Origin: Rhodothermaceae bacterium bin80
GTDB lineage: Bacteria > Bacteroidota > Rhodothermia > Rhodothermales > Bin80
Length of the DNA: 64,000 bases
Assembly (NCBI GenBank): GCA_002238805.1
Contig: MPNB01000001.1
Span: forward strand, 71,957 to 135,956
Direction: 5' to 3'
Shown: in pieces, positions 406-49,966 of the stretch
Numbering within the stretch: the first letter of the stretch is position 1
How the letters are laid out: each line of letters opens with the position of its first letter
Position numbers and translations under genes: made by a program
Notes under the pieces: generated by a model
The model's input: only the letters and a program-made list of their open reading frames with translations
The model's database searches: none
Told to the model about the DNA's origin: nothing

Positions 406-1263
406 ATGTTACGGCTGCCATTCTTTCTTGCCCGTGGTTTTGTAGCTGCTGAAACGCTTTCTGGCGCGATCCCTGTAATCCGGCAGCTGCATGACAAGGG
501 AGTGCTCACAACAGTGGACCTACTCGGCGAGCACGTAACGCGTCGAGATCTGGCACTGCTGGGGCGTGACAACTACATCCATCTATTGCAGACGCTGGCC
601 TCAGAACCTCAACTGGAGCGCAATATCTCCATCAAGCTTTCCATGATCGGACAGGTGATCGATGAAAATTTTTGTCACGACAACCTGTGTACTCTCTTGG
701 ATGAGGCCCGGGCGTTGAACGCCTTCGTGCGACTTGATATGGAAGGTAGCTCGGTTCTGGAGTCAAGTCTTCGCATTTTTGAGTCCGTACTACCCGAGTA
801 TCGTGAACATGTGGGTATTGTGCTGCAAGCGTACCTGAAGCGTACCGAAGAGGATGTGAAACGTATGTGCCGTTTGGGCGCGCGCGTGCGCCTATGCAAG
901 GGCGCATACCGTGAACCCTCGACGATTGCCTGGCGGCCCATGCCGAAAATCCGCACACAGTTCATCCGCTGTATGCACATCCTGCTTCGAGACGGCAATT
1001 ACCCCGCCATAGCCACGCACGACGACGCACTCATTGAAAGCACCAAAGCGTACGCCTTGGAAAAAAGCATCGACGCATCAAGATTTGAGTTCCAGATGCT
1101 CTACGGTCTGCGCCAAAAAACACAGGTGCGTATCGTCCGCGATGGGTACAACATGCGTGTTTACGTGCCCTATGGTCGCATGTGGCTACCCTACTATGCA
1201 CGTCGGCTCCGTGAACGACCCGAAAACGTCTCTTTCCTGCTGCGCAATTTTCTGCGATCCTGA
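406..1263 (+). CDS. Monofunctional proline dehydrogenase
   Basis: FVAAET, DLLGE, SIKLS, RLDMEG, RLCKGAY, ATHD, EFQMLYG and YVPYG motifs. Confidence 0.93.
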   Translation: MLRLPFFLARGFVAAETLSGAIPVIRQLHDKGVLTTVDLLGEHVTRRDLALLGRDNYIHLLQTLASEPQLERNISIKLSMIGQVIDENFCHDNLCTLLDEARALNAFVRLDMEGSSVLESSLRIFESVLPEYREHVGIVLQAYLKRTEEDVKRMCRLGARVRLCKGAYREPSTIAWRPMPKIRTQFIRCMHILLRDGNYPAIATHDDALIESTKAYALEKSIDASRFEFQMLYGLRQKTQVRIVRDGYNMRVYVPYGRMWLPYYARRLRERPENVSFLLRNFLRS

Positions 1264-49504: not shown

Positions 49505-49578
49505 CGGGGCGTAGCTCAGCCCGGTAGAGCGCTGCGTTTGGGACGCAGAAGTCGTCGGTTCAAATCCGGCCGCCCCGA
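49505..49578 (+). tRNA. tRNA-Pro(UGG)
   Basis: CGGGGCGTAGCTCAG..CTGCG-TT-TGG-GA-CGCAG..GTTCAAATC. Confidence 0.95.
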
Positions 49579-49611
49579 CTGGTGCGGATAAGTCAGTTCT
49601 ATTACATACAG

Positions 49612-49885
49612 GCGCTCGTAGCTCAATTGGATAGAGCAGCGGACTTCTGCAAAAAAGCGGGCCGCTGGCCGGAAACGGCTGGCGTGTAAGTGGTCAAATT
49701 CGGGGAAGCCTACGGAGCTTCTGCTTACGGTAATCCCGAGCCAAGCCCCAAGAGGGAAGGTGTAGAGACTAGACGGCCACCACCTTCGTTCAGTTACTGA
49801 AAAAGGTGAAGGGATAGTCCAGGGAGTCGGGAAACCGACACAAACCTGAATCCGCAGGTTGCAGGTTCGAGTCCTGCCGGGCGTG
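49612..49885 (+). tRNA. tRNA-Arg(UCU) interrupted by a group I intron (exons 49612-49648 and 49849-49885)
   Basis: Joining the exons restores the GCGGA-CT-TCT-AA-TCCGC anticodon arm, the T arm GCAGG-TTCGAGT-CCTGC and the acceptor stem. Confidence 0.92.
49649..49848 (+). ncRNA. Group I intron (IC3-like, 200 nt, no ORF)
   Basis: P1 with U.G at the 5' splice site; AAATTCGGGGAA (P), AATCCCGAGC (Q), GTAGAGACTA (R), GATAGTCC (S); GAAA-capped P2 and P9; terminal G. Confidence 0.93.
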
Positions 49886-49894
49886 CACACACAT

Positions 49895-49965
49895 GGTGAC
49901 GTGGCCGAGTGGCTAGGCAGAGGCCTGCAAAGCCTTGTACGGCGGTTCGAATCCGTCCGTCACCT
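49895..49965 (+). tRNA. tRNA-Cys(GCA)
   Basis: GGTGACGTGGCCGAGTGG..CT-GCA-AA..GTTCGAATCC, U73 discriminator. Confidence 0.94.
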
Positions 49966-49966
49966 C

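Follow-up and report, generated by a model that had tools for sequence, protein, structure and literature searches.

What lies between the tRNA-Pro(UGG) and tRNA-Cys(GCA) genes of Rhodothermaceae bacterium bin80, where a tRNA search in its standard setting reports nothing? In the 64,000-nt stretch of DNA that was analysed (hereafter the window), tRNA-Pro(UGG) is found at 49505–49579 and tRNA-Cys(GCA) at 49895–49966, both on the plus strand and both detected by ARAGORN and the Rfam tRNA model, as the first and last members of a Pro-Arg-Cys tRNA cluster. ARAGORN in default mode, which admits no introns, misses the Arg gene and calls nothing between the other two. With introns allowed, the same program reports tRNA-Arg(tct) i(38,200), a tRNA-Arg(UCU) gene at 49612–49885 (plus strand) that is interrupted in the anticodon loop, between U36 and A37, by a 200-nt segment (49649–49848) with a G at both ends. 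This segment is very probably a functional, ORF-less, Azoarcus-like group I intron, residing in the only tRNA-Arg(UCU) gene detected in the genome.

The split gene and the fold of its intron

Exon 1 of the gene (49612–49648, plus strand) comprises the 5′ strand of the acceptor stem, the D arm, the 5′ strand of the anticodon stem and the loop nucleotides C32, U33, U34, C35 and U36, the last of which is the splice-site U. Exon 2 (49849–49885, plus strand) comprises A37 and A38, the 3′ strand of the anticodon stem, the variable loop, the T arm, the 3′ strand of the acceptor stem and the discriminator G; CCA is not encoded. When the two exons are joined by script, ARAGORN reads the product as tRNA-Arg(tct), a regular 75-nt cloverleaf with the anticodon loop CU-UCU-AA. 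The splice junction is also fixed independently of any intron model, because an intronless orthologue from another family of the order (the gene of genome G031, locus L175) aligns to five closed genomes of the genus as two halves, query positions 1–37 and 38–74, with 92–100% identity (97–100% for exon 2 against query 38–74); the remaining matches of this gene in those five genomes are just 73–83% identical. Contiguous tRNA-Arg(UCU) genes occupy the same tRNA cluster in other families of the order, next to tRNA-Pro in G031 and G030 (Pro-Arg) and next to tRNA-Cys in G037 (Arg-Cys). At window position 49616, the acceptor stem of the window gene has T5·G68, whereas most relatives have C5-G68; the stem is closed by G1·T72.

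The covariance model for group I introns (Rfam RF00028, Intron_gpI) covers 49636–49841 over its entire length (model positions 1–253 of 253), with a score of 68.4 bits, above the gathering score of 50, and an E value of 3e-15 in the 64-kb window. The minimum-free-energy (MFE) fold of the intron alone has −71.9 kcal/mol (z −2.0, 200 shuffles) and recovers P2, P3, P4, P5, P6a, P8 and P9. An earlier reading of this DNA from its letters alone (the sequence-only reading) had proposed that tRNA-Arg(UCU) is interrupted directly after its position 36, and on this point the Rfam score, the spliced cloverleaf and the covariation agree. The intron elements that it had named, namely a P1 pairing UCU/GC with GCGGG and containing a U·G wobble (the slash here and below marks the splice site), P2, P3, P7, P8, P9 and the terminal G, are each present in the sequence.

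Two alignments were used to assess covariation. The first comprises 25 sequences, from the window, 23 genus-mates and one sister genus; 93.6% of its cells pair, and in 13 of 58 pairs both partners have changed, a result that none of 500 shuffles equals. The second comprises 29 sequences and spans the window's family and four other families of the order, leaving out 12 near-identical genus sequences, G173 and the long-intron genes of G032, G105 and G079. In this alignment, 98.0% of 1421 cells pair, compared with 28–45% when the 3′ partners are slid by 1–3 columns; 19 of 49 pairs show compensatory changes, spread over P1, P2, P3, P5, P6a, P8 and P9, and none of 500 shuffles reaches any of five measures. 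The predicted core runs from P3 to P9 with a P3/P7 pseudoknot and is supported by covariation apart from P4, P6 and P7; the invariance of these three helices makes covariation neutral for them, and their assignment comes from alignment to the Rfam model alone.

The helices all lie on the plus strand and are given here with gene numbering (position 1 = window 49612) in brackets; counts of both-side changes refer to the 29-sequence alignment unless stated otherwise. P1 is formed by exon UCU and intron GC at 49646–49650 (35–39) with the internal guide GCGGG at 49657–49661 (46–50), closed by the loop AAAAAA. Its splice-site wobble, U49648·G49659 (U37·G48), is kept in 29/29 homologues, and the intron pair 38–47 is AU in 14 sequences, GC in 10 and GU in 5. 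The P1 register of the Rfam model itself contains two non-standard pairs and was dropped; the register with the U·G wobble is the one that covaries. P2, at 49663–49684 (52–60 with 65–73), has nine base pairs, eight of them changed on both sides, and a GAAA tetraloop at 49672–49675. P3, drawn from the Rfam alignment and covariation, pairs GUGGUC at 49690–49695 with GGCCAC at 49775–49780 (79–84 with 164–169); its pair 80–168 is UA in 25 sequences, CG in three and UG in one. P4, at 49700–49705 with 49734–49739 (89–94 with 123–128), is nearly invariant and encloses P5/P5a at 49709–49730 (inside 98–119). P5 has the form CCUACG...UACGG, which we take to resemble the 11-nt tetraloop receptor, and P5a contains two compensatory pairs in the 25-sequence alignment. 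P6 (3 bp, invariant) and P6a (3–4 bp, two pairs changed on both sides) lie at 49740–49761 (129–150). P7, the putative guanosine-binding helix, pairs GACUA at 49767–49771 with UAGUC at 49815–49819 (156–160 with 204–208), forming the pseudoknot with P3, and none of its five pairs varies in the 29 sequences. P8 and the P8a hairpin, drawn from the MFE fold and the alignment, lie at 49781–49808 (170–197); the five proximal pairs of P8 are 88% paired with two compensatory pairs, and the distal part aligns poorly in the 25-sequence alignment. P9, at 49826–49839 (215–219 with 224–228), is a 5-bp helix, GUCGG with CCGAC, that is changed on both sides in four of its five pairs and carries a GAAA tetraloop at 49831–49834. 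The terminal G (omega G), at 49848 (237), precedes the 3′ splice site; this G and the GAAA loops of P2 and P9 are invariant in 29/29 sequences.

Distribution, size and relatives of the intron

The split tRNA-Arg(UCU) gene is inherited across the whole family and is not an oddity of a single genome. It occurs in 23/23 other genomes of the genus (88–99% identity), in the sister genus and, in an order-wide sample of 251 genomes, in 36 of the 37 genomes of the window's family, closed ones included. In four other families of the order the intron is patchy, being found in 4/7 genomes of family f2, 2/2 of f9, 3/3 of f23 and 1/5 of f27, and the same sample gave no match in its 21 remaining families (for example, 0/35 genomes of f5 and 0/37 of f10). 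A single match in family f25 (1/37) proved to be a tRNA-Leu(UAA) intron and was set aside. ARAGORN reads tRNA-Arg(tct) with an intron at the same site in 20/20 further genes, a set that excludes two partial matches (G163 and G250), with intron lengths of 198–254, 277, 675 and 679 nt. The presence of the intron in all 23 genus-mates and in 36/37 genomes of the family, together with the Pro-Arg-Cys neighbourhood shared with intronless relatives, favours vertical inheritance.

Across a phylum-wide sample of 401 genomes, intron matches are confined to the order Rhodothermales, with none outside it. A collection-wide scan by core pattern yielded at least 120 loci, and among the matches listed just one Arg(UCU) host comes from outside the order, at positions 439–720 (minus strand) of contig L168 from a metagenome-assembled genome titled Anaerolineae. 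This tRNA-Arg(UCU) gene is split at the same position by a group I intron of 194 nt, the core of which is at most 69% identical; the contig may be mis-binned.

The sequence-only reading had placed the intron among the most compact of its kind, and this holds within our sample. The 92 well-called tRNA introns among the matches listed have a median length of 240 nt; five of the 92 are 205 nt or shorter, one of these is mis-called, and the shortest credible one among the matches listed has 202 nt. The Arg(UCU) intron measures 194–208 nt across the genus and its nearest sister genus, with 200 nt in the window, 194 nt in G015 and 198 nt in G056. The window intron contains no credible ORF; the lack of a homing ORF had also been noted from the letters alone. 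Homologous introns of 675 nt (G032) and 679 nt (G105) carry an ORF of 174 or 172 aa, at L029:281–805 (minus strand) and L048:254–772 (plus strand), respectively, which lies in the P5 loop, antisense to the tRNA and the intron. The ORF of G032 matches HNH_2 (PF13391; E = 1.4e-6, 28.5 bits, cut-off 21), and that of G105 is visibly homologous. The endonuclease-bearing homologues fit the usual cycle of invasion with an endonuclease, fixation and loss of the endonuclease gene.

For the relationships of the intron, we built a quick maximum-likelihood tree of 124 intron cores, to which the scan contributed the matches listed; the search was short, and the tree has several long branches. The splice sites of several introns, among them those of L168, of L065 and of the Lys gene of the window genome (G000, described below), were set by hand after automatic calls had misplaced them. 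In the tree, a clade of 27 (SH-aLRT 98) holds all 17 Arg(UCU) introns of the tree, together with eight betaproteobacterial tRNA-Ile(CAU) introns at the same site, a mis-called ninth, and the Arg(CCU) intron of Nostoc linckia (L097). Three alphaproteobacterial Arg(CCU) introns (L065, L095 and L161) fall outside this clade, beside alphaproteobacterial Leu(UAA) introns. Provisionally, the nearest relatives among the matches listed thus appear to be the betaproteobacterial Ile(CAU) introns and the Nostoc Arg(CCU) intron, a placement that speaks against the jump from an alphaproteobacterial Arg(CCU) intron suggested by the sequence-only reading.

The Azoarcus-type Ile(CAU) intron (Ile2.5Ug, IC3) shares with the Arg(UCU) intron the insertion site after the fifth nucleotide of the anticodon loop, U−1 and the omega G. 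The betaproteobacterial Ile(CAU) introns among the matches listed are of the same size class (202–223 nt) and share the layout, in which P2 and P9 each carry a GAAA loop and the intron ends in ...GGGAG-hairpin(GAAA)-CACAAACC-G. Our comparison was made with these sampled homologues, which we presume to represent the Azoarcus intron. The host anticodon arms are nearly identical, with CAGCGGACT-CAT/AATCCG in Ile and CAGCGGACT-TCT/AATCCG in Arg, a likeness that would ease transposition between the two hosts. In contrast to the Ile(CAU) type, the intron described here has an Arg(UCU) host in another phylum, the guide GCGGG rather than GUG and two extra intron pairs in P1, and some Arg(UCU) members are 5–11 nt shorter (194–200 nt). 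The Arg(CCU) type, Arg.5Ug, of alphaproteobacteria such as Agrobacterium and of cyanobacteria shares the amino-acid family and the insertion site: the Arg(UCU) intron likewise interrupts the loop CUUCU/AA, with U−1 and the omega G, but its host anticodon is UCU, not CCU. Within that type, the Nostoc linckia intron has a similar P9 and 3′ end, and the alphaproteobacterial introns have a different 3′ domain. The tRNA introns inserted after U34 or U33 share the core strings of the scan pattern, GGTGTAGAGACTA...GAAGNNATAGTCC, but are longer (median 240 nt among the matches listed) and belong to the other major branch of the tree. A scan with these strings picks up Leu(UAA), CAU and Arg(CCU) introns, and this result, together with the clade shared with Ile(CAU) introns, relates the Arg(UCU) intron to the anticodon-loop introns labelled IC3 by Williams 2020 (bioRxiv 10.1101/2020.01.27.920355).

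Williams 2020 gives four classical bacterial types (Leu.3Ug, Arg.5Ug, fMet.2Ug and Ile2.5Ug), all marked IC3 on the authority of the group I intron database, and adds 17 more, which brings the known host types to 21. The literature covered, a scope that ends short of the full host table of Williams 2020, yielded no account of an Arg(UCU) intron host; the part of PMC8450103 covered mentions only fMet and Ile2 introns. The tRNAscan-SE 2.0 paper, in the part covered, describes the tool as not designed for group I intron detection. The 'introns' of 20–50 nt in the covered part of PMC5733544 were set aside as not comparable. The host tRNA is outside the classical four; in other respects the intron is a fairly ordinary member of a class of bacterial tRNA introns that is already known.

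Proposed splicing, AGA decoding and competing explanations

In the pathway that we propose, the Pro-Arg-Cys cluster would be transcribed and the intron would fold into P1–P9, including the P3/P7 pseudoknot, and dock its two GAAA loops (P2 and P9) on helical receptors. An exogenous guanosine bound at P7 would attack the phosphate 3′ of U36, which is held in the U·G wobble of P1; the terminal G would then take the place of the guanosine, and the 3′ OH of U36 would attack the 3′ splice site. Joining of CUUCU to AA would produce the mature anticodon loop. No classical P10 could be drawn, because AAU in the 3′ exon is not complementary to the bases that precede the guide sequence; the two exons are therefore probably held together by the anticodon stem of the tRNA. 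These steps are those of standard group I chemistry. With regard to its history, the intron would have been acquired in an ancestor of the window's family within the order, would then have lost its homing-endonuclease gene, and would since have descended vertically, its removal being a processing step that AGA decoding cannot do without.

RNA evidence was sought in the contigs (Logan) of four runs, in which RNA ends are not visible. Two RNA-library contigs are identical to the unspliced locus, one over 49619–49929 and the other over 49554–49886, and could represent precursor RNA or contaminating DNA. The latter is exact up to 49886 and then continues with 50 bases unlike the window, which points either to a different strain or to a chimera assembled by way of the conserved 3′ exon. 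The joint 49648→49849, which skips exactly 200 nt, occurs in contigs of three RNA runs. These joints were rejected as spliced product, as they carry 3–5 mismatches in 59–68 exon bases and have foreign flanks; most simply, the contigs that bear them derive from intronless tRNA-Arg genes of other organisms.

The genome of the window (G000; 4.08 Mb, 192 contigs, 94% complete) has 41 intronless tRNAs by ARAGORN, among which the Arg anticodons are ACG, CCG and CCT only. No second tct anticodon was found among these 41 tRNAs, and a BLAST search of the gene against the genome did not find another copy of its exons, although a second UCU gene may lie in the part that the assembly lacks. The Arg(CCU) tRNA is encoded by a separate intronless gene on contig C58. 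In 1095 long ORFs, AGA accounts for 4660 of 701,826 codons, a frequency of 6.64 per 1000; its share among Arg codons is 9.6%. Since no intronless UCU gene was found and AGA makes up this share of the Arg codons, and since a CCU anticodon by the standard decoding rules reads AGG and not AGA, the cell should need to remove the Arg(UCU) intron in order to decode AGA. The reliance of AGA on splicing, which the sequence-only reading had surmised, is thereby supported by the tRNA inventory and the codon use.

Three other explanations of the locus were weighed. The intron may be a true group I intron whose splicing in the cell needs a protein helper, a maturase or a tRNA-binding chaperone, because its small periphery would be unable to fold alone at physiological Mg. 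In favour of such dependence, the intron lies at the lower end of the sizes seen, with 200 nt where the 92 introns among the matches listed have a median of 240 nt, and the P8 segment of the genus has drifted from the CCUACG...AUAGG form of other families. However, both GAAA tetraloops are invariant, P5 retains its receptor-like motif, and neither the intron nor the DNA next to it holds a conserved protein gene; furthermore, similarly small Azoarcus-type introns self-splice efficiently. We consider the need for a helper improbable, though the most plausible of the three.

A dead pseudogene disrupted by an intron, with AGA read by a UCU gene absent from the assembly or by the Arg(CCU) tRNA, could be argued from the incompleteness of the genome and its division into 192 contigs, and from the RNA contigs, which gave no usable spliced junction. 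Against it, the arrangement is kept in 36/37 genomes of the family, including closed ones; the exons are 92–100% identical to intronless orthologues, the pairing of the intron helices is kept by compensatory changes, and a CCU anticodon is not expected to read AGA. We hold a dead gene to be very improbable. It is scarcely conceivable that the locus instead encodes a protein and that its RNA features are incidental: a 124-aa frame is open on the minus strand (49516–49890), but it overlaps tRNA-Pro and the whole Arg gene, and the substitution pattern is that of paired RNA. In addition, the introns of close relatives measure 194, 200, 201, 202, 203, 204, 205, 207 and 208 nt, differences that are not multiples of three, so that the 124-aa frame cannot be conserved.

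Two further introns in the genome and wider significance

The intron in tRNA-Arg(UCU) has two counterparts in the same genome, both outside the window. The initiator tRNA-fMet(CAU) gene contains a 274-nt group I intron after U33 (C120:41243–41516, minus strand), of type fMet.2Ug; RF00028 matches at C120:41281–41476 with 41.4 bits, below the cut-off. The core of this intron is 77% identical to that of the Arg intron over query positions 82–166, and core matches occur in 23/23 genus-mates. The tRNA-Lys(UUU) gene contains a 346-nt group I intron after U34 (C49:21504–21849, plus strand), with an RF00028 match at C49:21494–21823 of 32.6 bits, likewise below the cut-off; the intron is kept in 23/23 genus-mates, in G024 and in one other family (G039). 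The spliced products of both genes form normal cloverleaves. No Lys(CUU) gene was found in the genome, and Lys(UUU) is the only tRNA-Lys found. Because of the fMet and Lys introns, the inventory of 41 intronless tRNAs contains no tRNA-Lys and only two tRNAs with the anticodon CAT.

These introns bear on genome annotation: standard tRNA finders miss the Arg gene, and genomes of the family will thus seem to be without tRNA-Arg(UCU), tRNA-Lys and an initiator tRNA, which can be misread as incompleteness or odd decoding. With regard to evolution, the locus is a clear instance of an intron that has become fixed in an essential, single-copy gene throughout one family, with endonuclease-bearing relatives persisting in neighbouring families and with its closest relatives in a different tRNA that has a near-identical anticodon arm. 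For ribozyme work, the members of 194–200 nt push the Azoarcus-type class down in size and come with rich natural covariation. The known working of group I introns is unchanged by the Arg(UCU) intron.

A broader proposal would treat tRNA-Arg(UCU) as an undescribed host class, which arose when an intron of the Ile(CAU) or Arg(CCU) type transposed into a near-identical anticodon arm, in a family whose single-copy, essential initiator, Lys-UUU and Arg-UCU tRNAs have long kept ORF-less introns; these may have been retained because splicing, with its need for guanosine and Mg, ties the capacity for translation to the nucleotide state of the cell. We put this forward as a speculation that is unlikely to hold in full. 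If it were true, the members of 194–200 nt would rank with the smallest group I ribozymes in nature and would be useful as minimal scaffolds.

Elsewhere in the window, a TPP riboswitch (12529–12626, minus strand, 68.7 bits) adjoins the 5S end of an rRNA operon (12686–17809).
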